Virus record (IMG/VR): IMGVR_UViG_2778261087_000003
Source: a virus
Lineage: Duplodnaviria > Heunggongvirae > Uroviricota > Caudoviricetes
Reading direction: 5' to 3' (one strand)
Length of the DNA: 64,000 nucleotides
Under the pieces are notes generated by a model. It ran no database searches. It was not told where the DNA came from and saw only the letters and a program-made list of their open reading frames with translations. Position numbers and translations under genes: made by a program. Below are positions 14,326 to 36,800 of the stretch, one piece after another. Each line of letters begins with the position of its first letter. Position 1 is the first letter of the stretch.

Positions 14326-14461
14326 TTTGCTGTCCCGCGTTATGTTGTCGGAGACAGTTTGTGAGAAATGCAGGCCCGGCGATTTTAATCTGCTTTAGAA
14401 AACATCAGGGGAGAAGGACAGGGAAAGCAATGCGGTGAACCGGAGGCGGTTATAAAACAGA

Positions 14462-19747: not shown

Positions 19748-20073
19748 TATTGACCTCCGGTATTGCGGTACTGCTGTACCACTTCCAGTTTGTTATAAAG
19801 CGCGTCCAGTTTGGCCTCGATGACTGTCTGGCCACGGATATAATCCTCGCGACGGACATAATTCAGCGGTAAATCCGCTTTAAATCGCATAAATTCTTTT
19901 TCCAGCTCGCCCCAGTTGGATGCGGACTGTTGCAGGGCCTGTTCAAGAGAGGCGAATCGTGCCGCCTGGCGTTCTTCTGTTTTACTGAACAACCATTTGG
20001 CGAGCCCTCCCACAAACCCCATGAAGGTGAGCAAAAAACTCACCACCGTCCAGAATTCAACCTGCAGTGTCAT
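19747..20073 (-). CDS. Small membrane protein (late operon)
   Basis: 108 aa with one N-terminal hydrophobic helix. Confidence 0.45.
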   Translation of the reverse strand: MTLQVEFWTVVSFLLTFMGFVGGLAKWLFSKTEERQAARFASLEQALQQSASNWGELEKEFMRFKADLPLNYVRREDYIRGQTVIEAKLDALYNKLEVVQQYRNTGGQ

Positions 20074-21449: not shown

Positions 21450-21800
21450 TTAAAGCCCCATCGCAACAGCCAGACAGACCGCTGCAACAATCAGTGCACG
21501 GCGGATTAACGCAGCAGAAAACACCAGGTGAAGGCCGGTCTGTACCGGGAAACGCCCATCAGCCATCAGTCTGTCGTCATGTTTCAGGTACTGACCGGGA
21601 CGGGCTTTGGGGAAGAGCGAACGGTCAAGCCAGTAACCCAGCACTGCTGCCAGCGTGATGAGTGCCAGCTTGTAGATCACAACAGGCAACTGCTGTGGCG
21701 AGACCAGAGCGATGGTGCCCAGCAACAGCACTGAGGTCAGCAGCCAGCCGCTGAGGCGAGGTTTTTTAACAGGGGGAATGAATTTTTTCAGGTTTTTCAT
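21450..21800 (-). CDS. Putative holin (start set at internal ATG with strong RBS)
   Basis: AAGGAGA RBS before ATG at 21800; three predicted hydrophobic helices; first gene of late arm. Confidence 0.5.
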   Translation of the reverse strand: MKNLKKFIPPVKKPRLSGWLLTSVLLLGTIALVSPQQLPVVIYKLALITLAAVLGYWLDRSLFPKARPGQYLKHDDRLMADGRFPVQTGLHLVFSAALIRRALIVAAVCLAVAMGL

Positions 21801-21930
21801 GTGTGTCTCCTTGTCTGGTGGAGACAGCATCACAAATACAGGGCGCGAAGGATTTTAAAGCGCGTTAAGAGAGCCGGGGATACGGGATGTGCAGGATAAA
21901 CGATGAATTATTCACAGAGGAGAATACGAT

Positions 21931-22674
21931 ATGACGCAGACACTGAATCCGGTCATCACTGTCACTGTGTCCGGTCCTGTGGGCAGCGGTAAAAGTTACG
22001 TACTGGCGCGGATAGAAGAGATGGTGAAACAGGAACTCGGAAACAGCGTCATTGTCGATGCTGCTGACGTGGAGAATGAGCGCCGTATGAGTGGCGATGA
22101 TCTGACGACCTGGCAGAAGCCACGGGGTGGCACAGTGATCAGGCTGGAGGAATACACGGGACAGGGCCTGTTGTCATACGGCGAGGAGCGTATCTGTCGG
22201 ACGAATGAGCTGCTGGATGTTATATGCCCCACGGGCCGGCAACCCTGGATACTGCCCGATGCACTGCATGCCACCATTGCGGCACTGATGACAGTTTACG
22301 ATCAGGAACTGCTCATGAAGGAGTTACGTAAACTCACCGGTCAGCCAACAGAATGTTTTTCGGCCCCGAAGTACGGGAAGCAGGAACACCTCCCGGTGAA
22401 CACAATCCCCGTTAACCAGCCTCCCCGGTTCTTCGACGAATACATTCTGACACCGGAAAATAAAGCTGAGCACGAAGAGATCAAAGCGGCGTTGTTCCGG
22501 GAAATCAGGAAGATTGCTGAAATGCAACTGGGGGGCGGGCTGGACAGAGTGATAGCGAGAGGAGAATGGGAGTCGCTGTTTGAAAGAGTTTCCCCGGAAT
22601 TACTGCCCCTCGCACTGGCTATCGGGATTATGCAGACAGCAGATAAACCTCACTTACGTTCATCAAACACGTAG
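21931..22674 (+). CDS. P-loop NTPase of unknown function (cargo)
   Basis: 247 aa, Walker A GPVGSGKS near N-terminus and candidate Walker B VIVDAADV; C-terminal 150 aa unassigned. Confidence 0.55.
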   Translation: MTQTLNPVITVTVSGPVGSGKSYVLARIEEMVKQELGNSVIVDAADVENERRMSGDDLTTWQKPRGGTVIRLEEYTGQGLLSYGEERICRTNELLDVICPTGRQPWILPDALHATIAALMTVYDQELLMKELRKLTGQPTECFSAPKYGKQEHLPVNTIPVNQPPRFFDEYILTPENKAEHEEIKAALFREIRKIAEMQLGGGLDRVIARGEWESLFERVSPELLPLALAIGIMQTADKPHLRSSNT

Positions 22675-22727
22675 CGCAGAATATTTTGCCGGTGAGTACA
22701 TAAAAATCATCATTTAAGGAGTGCATC

Positions 22728-22943
22728 ATGAATCCCCGATTAACGTTAACAGAACATCAGCGCCGTGCTGAAGCAGTGAACAATGTTCTGGAAGATATTA
22801 TCCGGTTATACCGCGGAGAACTGAGTGTCTGTCGTGCCGCTTTTCATTTTCAGGGAATACAAAAGCAGTTTGATACTTCTGTTTTTGCAGAAGGTATTAC
22901 TTATGCCCTGGACCGGATAAGGTCAGAAAATCGCCCCGGATAA
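22728..22943 (+). CDS. Hypothetical small protein
   Basis: 71 aa ORF between NTPase and Dam genes. Confidence 0.35.
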   Translation: MNPRLTLTEHQRRAEAVNNVLEDIIRLYRGELSVCRAAFHFQGIQKQFDTSVFAEGITYALDRIRSENRPG

Positions 22944-22997: not shown

Positions 22998-23029
22998 GAC
23001 CAGCCCGGCACCCGAAAGCCGGGCTGGTC
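22998..23029 (+). other. Perfect 12-bp stem-loop (GACCAGCCCGGC-8 nt-GCCGGGCTGGTC)
   Basis: Seen directly; intergenic between 71-aa ORF and Dam; no U-tract after it. Confidence 0.4.
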
Positions 23030-23133: not shown

Positions 23134-23898
23134 ATGAAAATGCAGACATTACCCATCGTGCCGTGGATTGGTGGCAAACGTCGCCTTGCAAAACACATTC
23201 TGCCGCTGTTTCCGGCGCATGAATGTTATGTGGAGCCGTTTTGTGGGGCAGCAGCGCTCTATTTTCTTAAGACACCTGGTAAGCTCGAAGTCATTAACGA
23301 TATCAATGGTGAACTGGTGAATCTGTACCGGGTGGTAAAGCATCACCTGGAAGAATTTGTCCGCCAGTTCAAATGGGCGCTGGTCAGCCGTCAGATCTAC
23401 AAATGGCTGCAGATCACCCCGGAAGAAACACTGACGGATATCCAGCGTGCAGCACGGTTCTACTACCTTCAGAAGCAGGCGTTTGGCGGCAAGGTGGCAG
23501 AGCACAGCTTCGGTACCTCCACCACATCCCCGCCACGCTTCAACTTGCTGCGTATTGAAGAAGAACTGTCAGCGGCACACCTGCGACTTTCCAGAACAGT
23601 CATAGAACACATGGACTGGCAACAGTGCATTGAGCGTTATGACCGCCCGCACACGCTGTTCTACTGCGACCCGCCGTATCTGGGTACGGAAGGCTATGGT
23701 GTGGATTTTCCTGAAGGGAACTACTCGCGGCTGGCAGAGCTGGCCCGGTGCATCAGAGGAAAAATGATAATTTCGGTGAACGACATCCCGCAGATGCGCG
23801 AGGTGTTCACTGGACTGAACATACAGACAGTGAATATCAACTACAGTCTGGCGGGCAAATCAACGCCGCGCCGTGAGCTGGTGATTTGCAATTTTTAA
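23134..23898 (+). CDS. dam: DNA adenine methyltransferase, Dam family
   Basis: ...PWIGGKRRLAKHILPLFP..., EPFCGAAA (SAM motif), YCDPPYLG (DPPY catalytic motif); start set at MKMQTLPIVPW. Confidence 0.85.
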   Translation: MKMQTLPIVPWIGGKRRLAKHILPLFPAHECYVEPFCGAAALYFLKTPGKLEVINDINGELVNLYRVVKHHLEEFVRQFKWALVSRQIYKWLQITPEETLTDIQRAARFYYLQKQAFGGKVAEHSFGTSTTSPPRFNLLRIEEELSAAHLRLSRTVIEHMDWQQCIERYDRPHTLFYCDPPYLGTEGYGVDFPEGNYSRLAELARCIRGKMIISVNDIPQMREVFTGLNIQTVNINYSLAGKSTPRRELVICNF

Positions 23899-23942: not shown

Positions 23943-24470
23943 TTAATCCAGCCTTGGACAAGTCCAATAATCATTATCTGGATCAGGTGAATAAACCTTC
24001 AAACAACCCGCTCGCGGGGGCTTATCATCATCTGTCATCGGAACATTTTCTTTATCCAGTTTCACAGTCAAGTCTCCACCGGGAACATCCGTTTTATCAA
24101 AAAAAACAGCCTGACATGCTGATTTAGGTATTTTCACTTCATGGGCATTATTGGATATGAACAAATAACAATTATTGCCAGAAGCTATGTAGTCACTTGG
24201 AATGTTATTTTCGTCTTTAATATGAAACTGCACAGTTGTCACCGGGCGTTCGCTATCCTTGGATACTTCAATTTTTTCAAAACTGCCCGCGTACTTATCT
24301 AGGCCGGGGAGTTGTTGGCGAATAAATTGTAATTCACGATTTACAACAGGATTATCTGTTTCAACGCTAAAAACATCGTGCTCCTTAGTTGTGGTGGACA
24401 TATCAGCTGGGGCAGTATTATCTCCACAGCCAGATAAAACAAATATCAACGGTATAAATAATTTACGCAT
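23943..24470 (-). CDS. Lipoprotein (cargo/moron), visibly AT-rich
   Basis: MRKLFIPLIFVLSGC lipobox signal; RBS AAGGA before this ATG; downstream of repressor on same strand. Confidence 0.7.
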   Translation of the reverse strand: MRKLFIPLIFVLSGCGDNTAPADMSTTTKEHDVFSVETDNPVVNRELQFIRQQLPGLDKYAGSFEKIEVSKDSERPVTTVQFHIKDENNIPSDYIASGNNCYLFISNNAHEVKIPKSACQAVFFDKTDVPGGDLTVKLDKENVPMTDDDKPPRAGCLKVYSPDPDNDYWTCPRLD

Positions 24471-24511
24471 CGTCATGTCCTTATACATTTAGTGTTCTTA
24501 ATAGGAACAGA

Positions 24512-24922
24512 TTAACCCGTATTTTTTAATCTCTCGAACTCAGCGGACAGCTCCTTAAGCTGTTTTTCCATATTAATCATTCGCTGTTTTTCTTCAGCGC
24601 CTCGCAGTAACTCTTTCCGCACTTCTGGATCCAGTTGGTTGAGCAACTCTAATAACTTCAGGTCAGATTGGCTGAAATGCTGCTCTTGATTAGTCAACTG
24701 TACTTTCTCTACTCCCACAGTTTCCCCTTTACCAGTAAGTAGCCAATCTATCGATATGTTCAAATGAGCACTCAATGCAACAAGAGCTTCTGCATTAGGC
24801 TCTCGCTCTCCACGTAGATAATTTTGAAGTGAGCGATATGGAATTTTCGATAAATCAGATAATGCCTTGATTGTCAGACCTTTAGCAACCATCGCTTCGC
24901 GCAATCTCTCTTTTATACTCAT
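24512..24922 (-). CDS. Phage repressor (c-like), HTH XRE-type with coiled-coil C-terminus; start uncertain
   Basis: MSIKERLREAMVAKGLTIKALSDLSKIPYRSLQNYLRGEREPNAEALVALSAHLNISIDWLLTGKG; divergent from early operon. Confidence 0.7.
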   Translation of the reverse strand: MSIKERLREAMVAKGLTIKALSDLSKIPYRSLQNYLRGEREPNAEALVALSAHLNISIDWLLTGKGETVGVEKVQLTNQEQHFSQSDLKLLELLNQLDPEVRKELLRGAEEKQRMINMEKQLKELSAEFERLKNTG

Positions 24923-26800: not shown

Positions 26801-28570
26801 ATGACCCCGGCACTGACTGAAAAACTGGTTGAAACAGCCCGCGCGGCACGTGACGCGGGGCATGGTAAACGCGGTGCAATATACGACGCTGCCTGTGCTG
26901 AACTTGGCATGTCCCGCGCCACTCTGCTGCGCAGGCTGAAGGAGGTCTCTGTGACTGATAAACGCAAAAAACGCGCCGATGCCGGGCGCAGCGCCCTGAC
27001 CCGCGACGAAGCCGCGCTGATATCTGCCACACTGCGTGAGGCCACCCGCAAGAACGGTAAGCGTCTCTATTCCATCGCAGATGCAGTGGAAACCCTGCGG
27101 GCTAACGGCTTTATCACCGCAGGCAGAACAGATGAAACCACCGGTGAGTTTTTCCCGTTGTCTGAAGATGCCATCAGCCGTGCTCTGCGTAACTATGGCC
27201 TGCACCCGGAACAACTGGATGCCCCTGCACCACATACCGAAGTGGCCAGTCTGCATCCCAATCATGTCTGGCAGATTGACGCCTCACTCTGCACGCTTTA
27301 CTACCTGAGCAATGGACATAAAGGGCTGCAGGTGATGGACAGCGCGAAGTTCTACAAGAACAAGCCCGCTAACCTTGCCCGTATCGCCAGTGACCGCGTG
27401 TGGAGTTACGAGATTACCGACCATGCCAGCGGCTGGATTTACGTTGAGTATGTGACGGGCGCGGAATCAGGTGAGAACCTGTGTTCTGTGCTTATCAACG
27501 CCATGCAGGAGCGTGGCGGCGCAGACGTGCTGCACGGCGTGCCGAAAATACTCTATCTCGACCCCGGCTCGGCAAACACCGCGGGTATGACGAAAAACAT
27601 GTGCCGCTCACTGGGCATCGACCTGATAGCGCACAAGCCGCATAACGCCCGCGCCACCGGACAGGTGGAAAAGGCGCGTGACATTATCGAACGCAAGCTG
27701 GAGCCGGGTCTGAAGTTCCGGCCGGTTCACAGCCTGGAAGAACTCAACGCGCTGGCCGCGAAATGGCGCAGCCACTTTAACGCCACGGCTGTTCACAGCC
27801 GCCACGGTAAAACCCGCACGGATATCTGGCTGAAGATTACTGCTGAGCAGCTGAAAAAAGCGCCTTCCGTTGAGGTATGTCGTGAACTGGCTGTGGCGGC
27901 ACCAGAACTCCGCAAAGTCACGCCAAAACTTCGTGTCTCGTTCCGGGGCACTGAATTTGACGTATCAACGGTACCGGGCGTACTGGTTGGTGAAAAACTG
28001 ATGATTACCCGTAACCCATGGCGCAGCGATGTGGCACAGGTGGTTCTGACCGGTGAGGACGGCCACGAGACGTTCTTCCTGGTCGAAGAGGTCAGAAAGA
28101 ACGAGTTTGGCTTTGCTGAAGGCGCGGCGGTATTTGGCGAAAGTTACAAAGCCCTGCCGGAAACCCCGGCACAGACGGCGGCAAAAGAAACTGAAGCGCT
28201 GGTTACCGGTACAGACAACGCCGCAGATGCAGCCGCCGCACGCAAGGCGAAGGCGCTGCCGTTCGGCGGGCGGCTTGACCCGTATAAACATATCGACGAC
28301 ACCACACTTCCGGCCTATATGCCGAAGCGTGGTCAGGCCTCTGACGTACGCGGGCCGCGCACTGAACAACGTCCCATGACTCATGTGGAGGCCGCGAAAG
28401 CCCTGCGCGATAAGTTCAGCGCCGACGGCCTTACCTGGACGCCGGAACATTACCGCCAGTTAACGGCACAGTACCCGGACGGCGTACCGGAAGCCGCACT
28501 GGATGAAGTCATGGCCACGCTGACCACACCGGCCAGCAGCAGTGTTATCAGCATTGTTAACGGCAACTGA
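26801..28570 (+). CDS. DDE transposase (Mu A-like)
   Basis: 589 aa; N-terminal HTH; catalytic residues in WQIDAS, YLDPGS and GQVEKA. Confidence 0.85.
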   Translation: MTPALTEKLVETARAARDAGHGKRGAIYDAACAELGMSRATLLRRLKEVSVTDKRKKRADAGRSALTRDEAALISATLREATRKNGKRLYSIADAVETLRANGFITAGRTDETTGEFFPLSEDAISRALRNYGLHPEQLDAPAPHTEVASLHPNHVWQIDASLCTLYYLSNGHKGLQVMDSAKFYKNKPANLARIASDRVWSYEITDHASGWIYVEYVTGAESGENLCSVLINAMQERGGADVLHGVPKILYLDPGSANTAGMTKNMCRSLGIDLIAHKPHNARATGQVEKARDIIERKLEPGLKFRPVHSLEELNALAAKWRSHFNATAVHSRHGKTRTDIWLKITAEQLKKAPSVEVCRELAVAAPELRKVTPKLRVSFRGTEFDVSTVPGVLVGEKLMITRNPWRSDVAQVVLTGEDGHETFFLVEEVRKNEFGFAEGAAVFGESYKALPETPAQTAAKETEALVTGTDNAADAAAARKAKALPFGGRLDPYKHIDDTTLPAYMPKRGQASDVRGPRTEQRPMTHVEAAKALRDKFSADGLTWTPEHYRQLTAQYPDGVPEAALDEVMATLTTPASSSVISIVNGN

Positions 28571-32786: not shown

Positions 32787-33228
32787 ACAACGTCTTATCC
32801 AGCTCATTCATATTGCCCGTAATGAACTGGGTATGGATGAAGACACCTACCGCCAGATGTTACAGGGGCTGACCGGTAAAGCCTCAACCAAAGGAATGGA
32901 TACCACACAACTAAACTGCGTGCTGGAATCCATGAAAAGGAAAGGCTTTCGCGTTAAGCCTGCCGGAAAAGCCAGCTCCGGTTTACCGCTGGATAACCAT
33001 CCGCAGTCCAGGAAAATCCGTGCGCTATGGCTTGAAATGGCTGCTGCCGGCATTGTTCGTGACCGTTCAGAAAATGCATTAGCGCGGTGGATCAAGCGGG
33101 AAACGGGCATCAGCGCCCTGCGCTGGCTCAATACTGAACAGGCAAGTAGTGTTATTGAGAAACTGAAGAAGTGGCAGCGCAGAGCTGCGGGAGTAAAACA
33201 TGAGCGACCTGAATCAGTTTCGAAGTAA
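32776..33228 (+). CDS. GemA-like regulatory protein (Mu gp16-like)
   Basis: MMTKQRLIQLIHIARNELGMDEDTYRQMLQGLTGKASTKGMDTTQL... Confidence 0.6.
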   Translation: MMTKQRLIQLIHIARNELGMDEDTYRQMLQGLTGKASTKGMDTTQLNCVLESMKRKGFRVKPAGKASSGLPLDNHPQSRKIRALWLEMAAAGIVRDRSENALARWIKRETGISALRWLNTEQASSVIEKLKKWQRRAAGVKHERPESVSK

Positions 33229-33589
33229 AGGGCCGGAACTCCTGGTGGAACTGGCACAGCATACCTCTGAGACCGTTCGCGAGATTATTGATATTGAGCC
33301 CGCAATTGCCGACCAGATTGGTCAGGCCGTCGCGAACCGCATGATGCAGGTCTGGGGCGGGCAAAACGTTTATTTCCCGATGGGCATGGTATGGAAGGTC
33401 AGTCAGCGCGACCGGGAAATCTTCAGGGAGTTTAACGGACGTAACCACCATGAACTGGCCCGCAAATTTGGTGTTTCGCTTCAGTGGGTCTACAGCGTGG
33501 TTAAGCGGGTAAGAAAAGAAGAACTGGATCGGATGCAGGGCAAGCTATTTGCTGATGAACCCGATGTAGATACGGAGAAAAAAGAGTAA
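33200..33589 (+). CDS. mor: Mor/C-family late transcription activator
   Basis: ...GGQNVYFPMG...REIFREFNGRNHHELARKFGVSLQWVYSVVKRVRKEE...; last gene of early arm. Confidence 0.7.
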   Translation: MSDLNQFRSKGPELLVELAQHTSETVREIIDIEPAIADQIGQAVANRMMQVWGGQNVYFPMGMVWKVSQRDREIFREFNGRNHHELARKFGVSLQWVYSVVKRVRKEELDRMQGKLFADEPDVDTEKKE

Positions 33590-33598
33590 TATCTGCAA

Positions 33599-33676
<78 letters not shown>

Positions 33677-33677
33677 A

Positions 33678-33752
<75 letters not shown>

Positions 33753-33893
33753 TCTCGTGTAGTTCAGGAGGGCATTGCTCAACAGGAACAGCAGGCCAAA
33801 TCAACTACACCAAAGGGTAAAAAACGACGCAGGAAGGCTATACCAGAGGATATAAAGGCACAACGGACCGAAGCAGCCGAACACGCTCGCGAA

Positions 33894-36800
33894 ATGTTCG
33901 ATCAAAAAGGCGGTGCGCAAAAAAGCCAAAACCAACGCGATGCGCGTGGTCGTTTTATTGGAAAGTCAGGGAGTAAGGCCGCAGCGGAAGATGCCCGTGC
34001 TGAACGTGCTGAAAAGGCCAGGCGCAAAGAGGATGATGAGCGTCTAAATGCTGAATCAGGTTTATTAAAAAAACTGTCAAAAGTAGCTGAAGGCATAGGT
34101 AACCCTTCAGAGACTCGTGCCGTCGATGCGTTAGGTTATGCCGTTGCTGGTCCATTGTGGGCAGCAGGGAAGGAGCTTGGCGGGATATCAAAAGAAGTTG
34201 GTGGATCGCTTAATGGTGCCAGAAAGTCTATTGCCGATGTGATTCGTGGCAATGACGATAACAGCCGTAGAAAAGGTTTTTTTAGGCGTAAATCGCAAAA
34301 TAGTGCCGATGTCGTTCAGGTTAACACCCAAAAACGGACGGTTCAGGAACTTCAGGAGCAGACCAGCGAAATTAAAGAGGGCAATGACAAGATTCTCAGC
34401 GCCCTTGATCAGATAGCCAAAAACACCGGGAAAAAGAAGGGCGGCTTGCTGTCCAAACTATTTAGCCTGTTAGGGAAGGGGGCCGGTGGCGTCGCGTCGT
34501 TGTTAATGGGGCGTGGCATGCTGAAAAAAGCTGGAGCACTCGCTTTTGGCGCTCTGGGGGCAAAGAAACTTGTAGGAATGCTACGCGGTGGTGGCAAGAA
34601 GACTCTCGCCCATGAAGGCGGAGATTTGGCTGCCCGGGCAGCAGGTAAACTTGGATTAAAGGCAGTTGGTAAAGGGGCGTTACGCGCAATTCCCCTGGTC
34701 GGCACAGTGGCTGGAGGTATTTATGATGCGGTAACCGGTTGGAATGATACAGAAGCGCAACGTCGAGCGTTTGGGCTTAAATCAGGACAAGATCCATCAT
34801 TCCAGCAAAAAGCCGCTTATACGTTAGCTAATGTTCTTGATATGGGGGGACTGGTATCTGGTATTAGCAGCGCCATTGGTGAGGTTCTCAAATCACTTGG
34901 ATTTGAGGATATCGGCAATATGTTGCAATCATTTTCGACGGAAAGTATTGCCCAGGCCATTGATAGTGGGATTACCAACTTAGAAACATATATTTCTAAC
35001 CTTGGCGACACCATTTCTACCAAGTTCGATGATTACACAGCAAAGATTGGTGATGCTGTTTCAGCATGGTTTAGCGATACATCTAATAAGCTGCTTGAAA
35101 AGCTGGATGCCATCAAAGACTTCTTTACTGTCGATAACCTGAAACAGGTTTTCAGTGATGCAATTGATAGTGCAATTGATTTCATTAAGAACCCAGGGAA
35201 ACACATTAAAGAGGCGGCTGGTAATATTTGGGATGGGGTTAAAAATTTACCTGGTAAAGCATTAGATGCAGCGGTTGATGCCGTTAAAAATACCCCTGCG
35301 GCAATGATTGTATCAAAAATACCCAATCCGATCGGCGAGGCTAATGCGAAAGAAATCACTCCAGAGTTAAAAGCTCCGGTTAATAGCCACCAGGAGACAT
35401 CTGATTCTAAAACTGAATCCGATGCCAAACAGACTAATATTGTTACCCGCGTGATAAATGCGGCACTGGACACGGCGAAAGATAGCAATAAAACAGTTAA
35501 AGAAACTGCTAATCAGATTATCAATGCAAATGCCGTAGAAACGGGCAATAGCGCGTTGCAGAAAATTGATAAAGCTATTGGTCAAAATAGCTCGTCATCA
35601 TCGTCGCTTAATACCACTGGCACCAGGAATGACATTCAGAAAGCTGCGGATACCTACAACAATGGCCGCTTGGATGTAAAAGTCGGAAGTCTTGGCGCTG
35701 AAGGTAAGGCAAATCTCGATAAGTTGGCTCCGTATTTTGCTGAACTAGAGAATAAATATGGCCTTCCTGAAGGTACTCTTTACGCGATCGCTGCAACTGA
35801 ATCTGGTGGTGATCCTAACGCAAAATCTACGCTTACAAGATCACCAAATGGAAAGCTAAGTGGTGGCGCTCTCGGAATGTTCCAGTTTACGAGCGTTGCT
35901 CGTGAGGAAACTGGATTATCCCGGGAAGATTCTTTTAATCCGGAAAAATCGGCAGAAGCTGCGGCTCTTCTCATGAGCAAGTATCTGAAGCAAGCCAATG
36001 GAGACTTAAACGAGGCCATCACTGCATATAACGCTGGGTTTGGCACTATCAATAAGTGGAAAAAAGGCACAGGTGACTTATCGAAAGAAAACCGTGAGTA
36101 CGCGATCAAGGTCAATACTCATCGTGCTCGCTATTTAGGTGGTGAAATCTATACACCTGGAGCAGGAGCACAGGGTGGGGCGCAATATGGAGTGAGGGGA
36201 CCACTGCCTGATAACGCTGTTATCGATCAGTCTACTGGCTTGGCGTTTACCCTTGGTGATAGCCCGTTTGAGAAAGGCGGTCTGGTAGACAAAATCGGCA
36301 ATGCTGTTGGCGTTAACGATCTGGTCAACAAATTCATGAATGGCCGGGGTATGCGTCGGGAAGTCGTTCAGGGAACGCTCGAAGAACGTGCACGAGGGAA
36401 GGGGACCGCAACAGCAGCTGGCAATGTGTATGTTGATACCCCGATGCCAGTTGAAGAGGCGCGTCCGGTGGCCAACAACTCAAGTTACTTTGACCAGCTC
36501 GGCGCACAAATGGGGATTGATGGACTATTCGATAAACTCCTCAACTCGCCGGGGATGCGGAAAAATAATGCGCCTGAACCAGCCTCCACGTCCCAGGTGA
36601 CGACTGCCGCCAACGATTTGCAGCAACCAACCGGTCGTATGCAGATAGACGGACAGGTTATTAGTGACCTTGGCGGCTCCGGTGCCAAGCCGACAATGCA
36701 GTTGGCTGATAATACCGTTTCACTTGATGGTGAAACGAAGCGGCTGTTTGCGCAGATGACCTCATTGCTTGCCAGGATTGAAGAGCACACCAAAGACTCG

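Follow-up and report, generated by a model that had tools for sequence, protein, structure and literature searches.

What is the role of a 247-residue phage protein that carries a Walker A motif a few residues from its N-terminus and otherwise belongs to no described family? The question is raised by the gene at positions 21931–22674 (plus strand) of a 64,000-nucleotide stretch of Caudoviricetes DNA (IMG/VR record IMGVR_UViG_2778261087_000003; herein referred to as the window), which is 100% identical to the chromosome of Escherichia coli O68:H12 strain 97.3 (NZ_CP061758.1). An earlier note, made from the letters alone, had described the product as an uncharacterised P-loop NTPase encoded by the first gene of a cargo island, and had suggested that it might be a toxin or a component of defence or anti-defence. 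Our preferred reading, to which we assign a probability of roughly 0.4, is that the product is a dispensable phage accessory protein in which a minimal phosphate-binding head is joined to swappable modules, and that its most likely role would be counter-defence or host manipulation.

The gene and its ribosome-binding site lie as follows:

21931–22674, plus strand: gene for the 247-residue protein (open reading frame list, RefSeq coding sequence, PHROG 3787)
21917–21922, plus strand: Shine–Dalgarno sequence GAGGAG, 8 nt before the ATG of the P-loop gene (read from the sequence)

The open reading frame (ORF) runs from an ATG start through 247 codons to a TAG stop, corresponds to the RefSeq product WP_069934702.1 (a hypothetical protein) and is preceded by a Shine–Dalgarno sequence whose AGGA core is invariant in an alignment of six diverged loci. 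Across nine distinct full-length alleles the ratio of nonsynonymous to synonymous substitution rates (dN/dS) is 0.24, with values of 0.16–0.33 in each of four segments, and the reading frame is therefore under purifying selection; this is a real gene, and the earlier description of a 247-residue ORF with GPVGSGKS near the N-terminus of its product holds. The same values bear on the possibility that the protein is an evolutionary by-product, formed by in-frame fusion of small moron ORFs that are now decaying around a relic P-loop with no current function. Many E. coli alleles are indeed truncated, frameshifted or internally deleted, and parts of the protein also exist as separate ORFs; however, the dN/dS of full-length alleles is low in all four segments, the P-loop residues do not vary between phage lineages that are 30–40% identical and hundreds of E. 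coli genomes keep the full-length form, and we hold an origin as functionless debris to be very improbable. A DNA-mimic role of the Ocr or ArdA type was also considered and rejected, the isoelectric point of the protein (5.2) being only mildly acidic. Searches of the literature by accession number, by PHROG identifier and for ST131 Mu-like prophages returned nothing relevant.

The sole portion of the protein that is conserved outside the Enterobacteriaceae is its N-terminal segment, herein referred to as the N-domain:

21931–22158, plus strand: N-domain, residues 1–76, a minimal P-loop domain (b1, Walker A, a1, b2, long loop, b3)
21973–21996, plus strand: Walker A motif GPVGSGKS, residues 15–22 (read from the sequence; family conservation)
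22048–22071, plus strand: VIVDAADV, residues 40–47, predicted strand b2 (alignment; AlphaFold2 secondary structure)
22132–22155, plus strand: strand b3, TVIRLEEY, residues 68–75, with the nearly invariant E74 (alignment; AlphaFold2 strand 68–75)

Taken alone, a Walker A pattern is not beyond chance in DNA of this length; the six-frame translation of the window contains four copies, as opposed to 2.4 in shuffled sequences, and two of the four occurrences lie in a tail-fibre gene. The motif of the 247-residue protein is nevertheless real, because it is conserved throughout the family, and profile matches to the equivalent segment of many solved NTPases agree with this. Among 26–27 homologues at 30–40% identity, G15, G20, K21, S22, I28, G37, E50 and E74 are invariant or nearly invariant, and R51 and W61 are further conserved residues of the N-domain. 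The segment VIVDAADV, initially taken for a Walker B motif, does not share this pattern: D43 is conserved in an enterobacterial subgroup only and is replaced elsewhere by I, E, V, G, K, N or A. Judged from the alignment, E74 (at the end of b3, in an hhhhE pattern) is a better candidate for a Walker-B-like residue, and the AlphaFold2 model, with a mean predicted local distance difference test score (pLDDT) of 66, is too weak to judge whether its side chain is oriented towards the P-loop.

The N-domain is a genuine Walker A element within a partial P-loop fold. Modelled with AlphaFold2 from a 26-sequence alignment (the pLDDT of 66 given above), it comprises a strand at residues 8–14, the P-loop, a helix at residues 21–39, a second strand at residues 40–44, a long low-confidence loop and a third strand at residues 68–75, directly past which the free-standing homologues terminate. 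A complete three-layer alpha/beta core would comprise at least five parallel strands and some 130 or more residues; conservation here stops at about residue 75, and the N-domain has neither strands 4–5 nor a lid nor a substrate domain. A kinase or classical NTPase is hence not supported, because the conserved domain is of about 75 residues, ends at the third strand, lacks a lid and substrate domain and reaches no family threshold; by its size alone the N-domain would be too small for such an enzyme. Of the original designation, then, the terms uncharacterised and P-loop stand, and the terms NTPase and kinase do not. Structure prediction followed by structural search, which had been proposed as a check, gave the strand–P-loop–helix fold and nothing significant in a Foldseek comparison of the N-domain model with the PDB (best E 0.55); the full-length model (pLDDT 49.7) was too poor to be searched with. 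The closest structural match among P-loop NTPases of the kinase–GTPase type (nucleotide and nucleoside kinases, SIMIBI) is yeast YGR205w (PDB 1odf), and it is not significant. A structural search of BFVD recovered a 72-residue member of the family (E 1.9e-5) together with small uncharacterised proteins of jumbo phages. Sequence-profile matches in the PDB are confined to the strand–P-loop–helix unit and are spread across many NTPase classes, and among the top matches are two designed P-loop proteins (PL2x4_2, PDB 9jix, and the "phosphate-loop protein", PDB 6c2u), with E 0.018 for the full-length profile and E 6e-4 and 1e-3 for the N-domain profile. These designed proteins are likewise small and consist of an idealised strand–P-loop–helix; they are artificial, whereas the present family is natural and phage-borne, additionally conserves E50, R51, W61 and E74, and is fused to further modules.

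Profile scans of the 247-residue protein are consistent with this assessment. In Pfam, only sub-threshold matches limited to the P-loop were obtained (the best being AAA_30, 16.8 bits vs. a cut-off of 27); in NCBIfam, no match exceeded 13 bits, where cut-offs are at least 70; and in PADLOC-DB v2, no defence family was found, the best match (SngB, E 0.011, 12.8 bits) being restricted to the P-loop region. No homologue among housekeeping nucleotide kinases was found. PHROG 3787, a group without functional annotation, matches over the full length (E 1e-162); its profile of 242 positions covers only the E. coli architecture N-M-L-C (modules defined below), and distant relatives match the first 75 positions. 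The same scans (Pfam, NCBIfam, PADLOC and PHROGs), extended to the neighbouring genes and to ten distant relatives, gave generic sub-threshold P-loop matches or PHROGs of unknown function. Truncated alleles carry the NCBI names "ABC transporter ATPase", "KAP family NTPase" and "P-loop NTPase fold protein", the basis of which is the Walker A segment alone.

How far does the family extend? A word-indexed search of 5.8 billion proteins returned relatives from E. coli only, whereas 62 proteins emerged when 1.84 billion cluster representatives were searched exhaustively with HMMER; outside E. coli, these have only residues 1–75 in common. In a profile scan of genome contigs, matches to the generic P-loop pattern predominated, and a single locus was recovered. 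The relatives are of two kinds: proteins of 200–364 residues from BcepMu-like prophages of Enterobacteriaceae, and free-standing proteins of 70–90 residues. Every context that we examined is a phage, and the family is both undescribed and phage-restricted.

The approximately 150 residues that had been left unassigned match no Pfam family; they do, however, resolve into three modules common to relatives, which we mapped by an all-against-all BLAST comparison of the family proteins. The 247-residue protein is thus composed of N (1–76), M (85–136), L (137–174) and C (175–247):

22183–22338, plus strand: module M, residues 85–136 (module BLAST map; relatives P0058, P0064)
22339–22452, plus strand: module L, residues 137–174, a proline-rich linker predicted to be disordered (AlphaFold2 pLDDT 25–28; module map)
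22453–22671, plus strand: module C, residues 175–247, helical (AlphaFold2 helices at pLDDT 62–78; homology with prophage L055)

Module M is the C-terminal module of proteins with the architecture N-Y-X-M and of the 141-residue N-M variants of E. coli, and it also occurs without an N-domain. Module C is homologous to a separate 76-residue gene of the BcepMu-like prophage L055 and to the C-termini of the family members P0030, P0035 and P0039 (the L055 protein matches residues 191–225 of the window protein with E 1e-3 and P0039 with E 6e-10). Elsewhere the N-domain is followed by other combinations: N-Y-X-M, N-Y-X-Z, N-Z, N-Y-V (in Citrobacter braakii), N-V-W, N-T-X-W, N-W, N-T-X-U, N-X-U, N-Y-P-X-U, the N-M form of the 141-residue E. 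coli alleles and N(1–51)-L-C; a headless U-M protein is also found. The sequence comparisons show that M, L and C are not fixed in related prophages: there they are recombined with at least eight other modules, have been deleted, or form adjacent genes of their own. The last case is exemplified by L055, in which three tightly packed co-directional genes beside the holin gene encode N (88 residues), Y-X-M (161 residues) and C (76 residues). This fission or fusion ties the parts together functionally or at least by co-expression, and the separate genes show that each part can be an independent small protein. A Pfam scan of the modules matched no family, and some modules match PHROGs of unknown function.

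A constant N-terminal domain with variable, recombining C-terminal modules is also a feature of the MuF-toxin fusions of temperate phages and of the shuffled Bro-N and KilA-N regulators. The P-loop family resembles these proteins in its constant head and variable C-termini, and differs from them in containing no recognisable toxin, immunity, DNA-binding or MuF domain; in contrast to polymorphic toxin-like proteins, it has no cognate downstream gene that co-varies with its modules.

The genomic setting of the gene in E. coli is a transposable prophage of the BcepMu-like type (Bcepmuvirus), which occupies about 33 kb around it. Its late genes are read leftwards from the minus strand (tail, head, terminase, spanin, SLT endolysin and, at 21450–21800, holin), its early genes are read rightwards, starting at about 25000 (a Ner-like protein, DUF3102, a DDE transposase at 26801–28570, an ExeA/MuB-like ATPase, Gam, GemA and, at about 33200–33589, Mor), and the repressor gene lies at 24512–24922 on the minus strand. 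Between holin and repressor is an island in which the P-loop gene, a small ORF (orf71) and dam occupy the plus strand and a lipoprotein gene occupies the minus strand:

23134–23898, plus strand: dam, a Dam-type N6-adenine DNA methyltransferase gene in the same orientation as the P-loop gene (Pfam PF02086, E 6e-29; TIGR00571; RefSeq)

The P-loop gene is divergent from the holin gene and converges on the lipoprotein and repressor genes, and its position between the holin and late-promoter region and dam is as had been described. Escherichia phage PhiKM, an isolated relative, encodes a 92%-identical protein at the same location, and the prophage region is found in 635–639 of the 5,426 complete E. 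coli genomes (approximately 12%), ST131-type strains included.

Comparison of islands bears out the view that this is the first gene of a variable cargo segment. ST131-type prophages carry an extra convergent gene, of 134 residues, between the P-loop gene and orf71; the CE10-type prophage has a P-loop protein truncated to 158 residues, two unrelated minus-strand genes and no dam; the gene is likewise truncated in the prophage L030; the F1022-type prophage encodes a 182-residue protein with an internal deletion; and the N61-type E. coli prophage has no P-loop gene. The BcepMu record has no annotated P-loop ORF in the corresponding interval. Since some sister prophages lack the gene, carry it in truncated form or have it re-assorted, it is accessory cargo, of the moron type: it is variably present, in a recombination hot spot between conserved phage modules. 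These findings weigh on the proposal that the protein has a core function at the start of the late or packaging programme, as a nucleotide-binding cofactor for late transcription, for packaging with HNH endonuclease and terminase or for DNA metabolism. Its conserved site next to the late (holin) promoter region of BcepMu-like prophages would suit such a function, as would the interposition of homologues between HNH and TerS genes in several types of Acinetobacter prophage; however, the gene is dispensable (given the N61 type, the BcepMu record and the truncated and internally deleted alleles), it lies on the strand opposite the late operon in BcepMu-like phages and its extreme C-terminal module shuffling is atypical of a core function, all of which makes this proposal quite improbable.

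The island also bears on a second proposal, namely that the protein is expressed in the lysogen and serves prophage defence or superinfection exclusion, with the P-loop head as a nucleotide-dependent switch or effector and the C-terminal modules as sensors of incoming phages. A variable island between lysis genes and repressor, in which sister prophages hold other cargo (a 401-residue protein with a nucleoid-associated protein, SLATT-like and membrane proteins), is what this proposal would lead one to expect, as is the moron-like orientation of the gene, opposite to both flanking phage operons, and the constant NTPase-like head with variable C-termini recalls defence sensors. The PADLOC result given above speaks against it, as do the size of the head (about 75 residues, three strands), insufficient for a STAND, AAA or ABC switch, the lack of a predicted sigma-70-like promoter upstream of the gene and, from other phages, the presence of free-standing homologues in lytic-cycle gene strings (replication/nin, HNH, TerS) and in a nucleus-forming jumbo phage, neither of which is a site of expression in the lysogen. 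We consider a defence role rather unlikely.

The other cargo of these islands deserves separate description. In sister prophages, alternative genes lie on the minus strand, co-directional with the repressor gene (L055 5965–7224; L007 4905–7120; L005 4612–6270; L030 6502–7023 and 8415–9308), and occur in pairs: 188-residue and 184-residue proteins; a 401-residue protein and a nucleoid-associated protein; a 196-residue membrane protein and a 328-residue protein; and a zinc-ribbon protein of 173 residues and a 297-residue protein. The N-terminus of the 184-residue protein is SLATT-like by eye only. We regard these minus-strand genes as candidate lysogen-expressed defence genes. In the window itself, the lipoprotein-like ORF of 181 residues (23943–24488, minus strand) matches no Pfam family and shares 23% identity over 127 residues with the C-terminal part of the 328-residue island protein of the CE10 type. 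At its right end (approximately 33590–34265) the prophage abuts an arylamine N-acetyltransferase pseudogene that is truncated and lacks its C-terminus, which fits Mu-type transposition into that gene; the window begins within the tail-fibre region of the prophage.

Free-standing N-domains place the family in a different set of surroundings, their carriers being many unrelated phages, among them lambdoid-like prophages of Acinetobacter and Pseudomonas and jumbo phages. In Acinetobacter prophages with several head types, the gene order is HNH endonuclease, the small P-loop gene and TerS, all co-directional, and at one Acinetobacter locus a gene of the Lar restriction-alleviation type lies 600 bp upstream of the P-loop gene. 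In a Pseudomonas alabamensis prophage, an Acb2_Tad1_hairpin gene is found two genes downstream of the P-loop gene, which itself precedes HNH and TerS genes; large phages that encode an NAD-dependent ligase have both an Acb2_Tad1_hairpin and a Sequestin gene within 6 kb of it. One copy belongs to a nucleus-forming jumbo phage that encodes chimallin. On the IMG/VR contig L035, where the ORF calls overlap, a DNA methyltransferase ORF has the match at its 3' end, and in the L032 prophage dam directly follows the P-loop gene. No downstream partner of the free-standing genes is conserved across the contexts examined.

We suggest that the N-domain would bind a phosphate-bearing ligand, be it a nucleotide, a nucleotide-derived signal or a nucleic acid, possibly as a homo-oligomer, and that the swappable modules would add other binding specificities. 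The most likely role of such a protein, counter-defence or host manipulation, would be exercised during phage growth and would resemble that of the anti-defence "sponge" proteins, which are short and often fused. A preprint (10.1101/2025.07.12.664507) reports that the sponges have fewer than 100 residues, form homo-oligomers, use positively charged pockets to bind nucleotide phosphates and are commonly fused with one another. Tad1, Tad2, Acb2, Acb4, Sequestin and Lockin resemble the P-loop family in being phage-only, shorter than 100 residues where free-standing and often fused, and the phosphate-binding motif of the family would suit nucleotide signals; the two groups have no sequence or fold in common, however, and the likeness is one of design and neighbourhood only. 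As to neighbourhood, Acb2_Tad1_hairpin, Sequestin, Lar or methyltransferase genes accompany the P-loop gene in several contexts, although not in all. A role as toxin or kinase, or in protecting the lysogen, appears less likely than counter-defence or host manipulation; the suggestion of a defence or anti-defence component accordingly stays plausible, with the context leaning towards anti-defence, and that of a toxin does not.

Several observations weigh against assigning the family to counter-defence or host manipulation. In neither sequence nor fold does the N-domain resemble any known anti-defence protein; the association with sponge genes comes from two phage lineages of about ten contexts; regions upstream of terminase genes are general hot spots for accessory genes; the other strand of the island carries genes that are likely expressed in the lysogen; and the AlphaFold2 models are weak (pLDDT of about 50 for the whole protein, 66 for the N-domain). 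Moreover, GKN replaces GKS in the family members P0028, P0050 and P0051, and Mg-nucleotide chemistry is therefore not universally kept. A more specific version of the proposal would make the N-domain the smallest natural Walker A protein that folds autonomously (approximately 70 residues), its nucleotide pocket completed through homo-oligomers, acting as a sponge or decoy for a nucleotide-based immune signal or for a host P-loop ATPase and serving as the constant head of a shuffled, polyvalent anti-defence protein in Mu-like prophages; in this full form we consider the proposal speculative and decidedly unlikely.

If the P-loop protein were instead a small kinase-type toxin (Zeta-like or similar), the ORF that follows it in the window would be the obvious candidate for an antidote. 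This ORF and the sequences around it are as follows:

22728–22943, plus strand: orf71, 71 residues (PHROG 4490, unknown function; ORF list, PHROG, tblastn)
22676–22729, minus strand: remnant, the first 18 codons of the convergent 134-residue gene (comparison with ST131-type prophages)
22998–23029, no strand assigned: 12-bp GC-rich hairpin between orf71 and dam (dG −30.6 kcal/mol, z −5.5)

Besides this small downstream ORF, the toxin proposal can draw on weak matches to the Pfam family Zeta_toxin, which reach E 0.001 or weaker in three of the 27 N-domains; in the 247-residue protein, the match is sub-threshold (12 bits vs. a cut-off of 22.3, E 0.13) and covers the P-loop only, and no lid or substrate domain is present. 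The pairing itself fares no better. By tblastn, all E. coli loci with L-C in the P-loop gene have orf71, and no homologue is present at E. coli loci of the N-M-only type or at the Citrobacter, L031, L032 and L055 loci; in L055 the fissioned modules, and no orf71-like gene, come after the N-domain gene. The coding signal of orf71 is weak (dN/dS 0.48; the other two frames give 0.63 and 1.01). Nor do the P-loop gene and orf71 form an operon in most E. coli prophages, where the convergent 134-residue gene (WP_000972294.1; L004 4133–4537) stands intact between them. The window lacks 318 bp at this point, and its identity to ST131-type prophages rises from 93.5% on the left of the deletion junction to 99.6% on the right, which indicates recombination; the 134-residue protein has a 27%-identical homologue of 188 residues at the equivalent site of L055. 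Across the loci compared, no gene co-varies with the N-domain or with the modules, which makes a toxin–antitoxin or toxin–immunity pair unlikely, and a Zeta-like toxin neutralised by orf71 is in our estimation extremely improbable. The hairpin downstream of orf71 has a perfect stem, with no U-tract on the plus strand and a weak one on the minus strand, and is a possible terminator. The 145 bp upstream of dam are conserved even where the prophage has no P-loop gene.

The 130-bp intergenic region from which the holin and P-loop genes diverge contains three blocks common to six diverged BcepMu-like loci, two of which are the following:

21854–21868, no strand assigned: conserved dyad TTTAAAGCGCGTTAA (intergenic alignment, six loci)
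21891–21897, plus strand: conserved GCAG(G/A)AT box, 33 nt before the start codon of the P-loop gene (invariant in six loci; the flanking spacer varies)

The dyad has the consensus TTTAAAG(C/G)GC.TTAA in the six loci. An arrangement of TTAAAATC-N13-TG(T/C)ATTT...CTGTCTCC is found on the minus strand upstream of both the holin gene (21846–21868) and the head operon (14380–14410), and because the holin-side arrangement recurs upstream of the head operon, the dyad probably serves as the Mor-type activator box of the late promoter for holin. The combined pattern is a candidate Mor-dependent late-promoter signature of this phage group; a weaker copy occurs inside the gene for a 108-residue membrane protein (19870–19893). 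A mirror-image Mor-type late promoter for the P-loop gene was considered and rejected, as the plus side of the dyad is unlike the box of the holin gene and head operon. With no sigma-70-type promoter predicted upstream of the P-loop gene, the GCAG(G/A)AT box may, from its conservation, be a promoter element of this gene. An inverted repeat over the holin Shine–Dalgarno sequence (GTCTCC-N9-GGAGAC, 21805–21825, in the minus-strand transcript) is invariant in the six loci, with a loop that varies, and may be a translational control hairpin for holin.

What is new here is a natural family of mini P-loop domains with combinatorial module shuffling. Should the proposed function hold, the family would represent a new group of phage counter-defence or host-manipulation factors and a natural counterpart of the minimal P-loop peptides that are used as models of early protein evolution, and the constant-head design, if true, would mark out as candidate effectors about a dozen further small uncharacterised modules, among them M, C, X, Y, Z, U, V and W. 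Even if the protein proves inert, the analysis corrects the misleading names "ABC transporter ATPase" and "KAP family NTPase" on truncated alleles. The P-loop gene is common in clinical E. coli, and any phenotype that it confers would therefore bear on phage therapy and on prophage biology.

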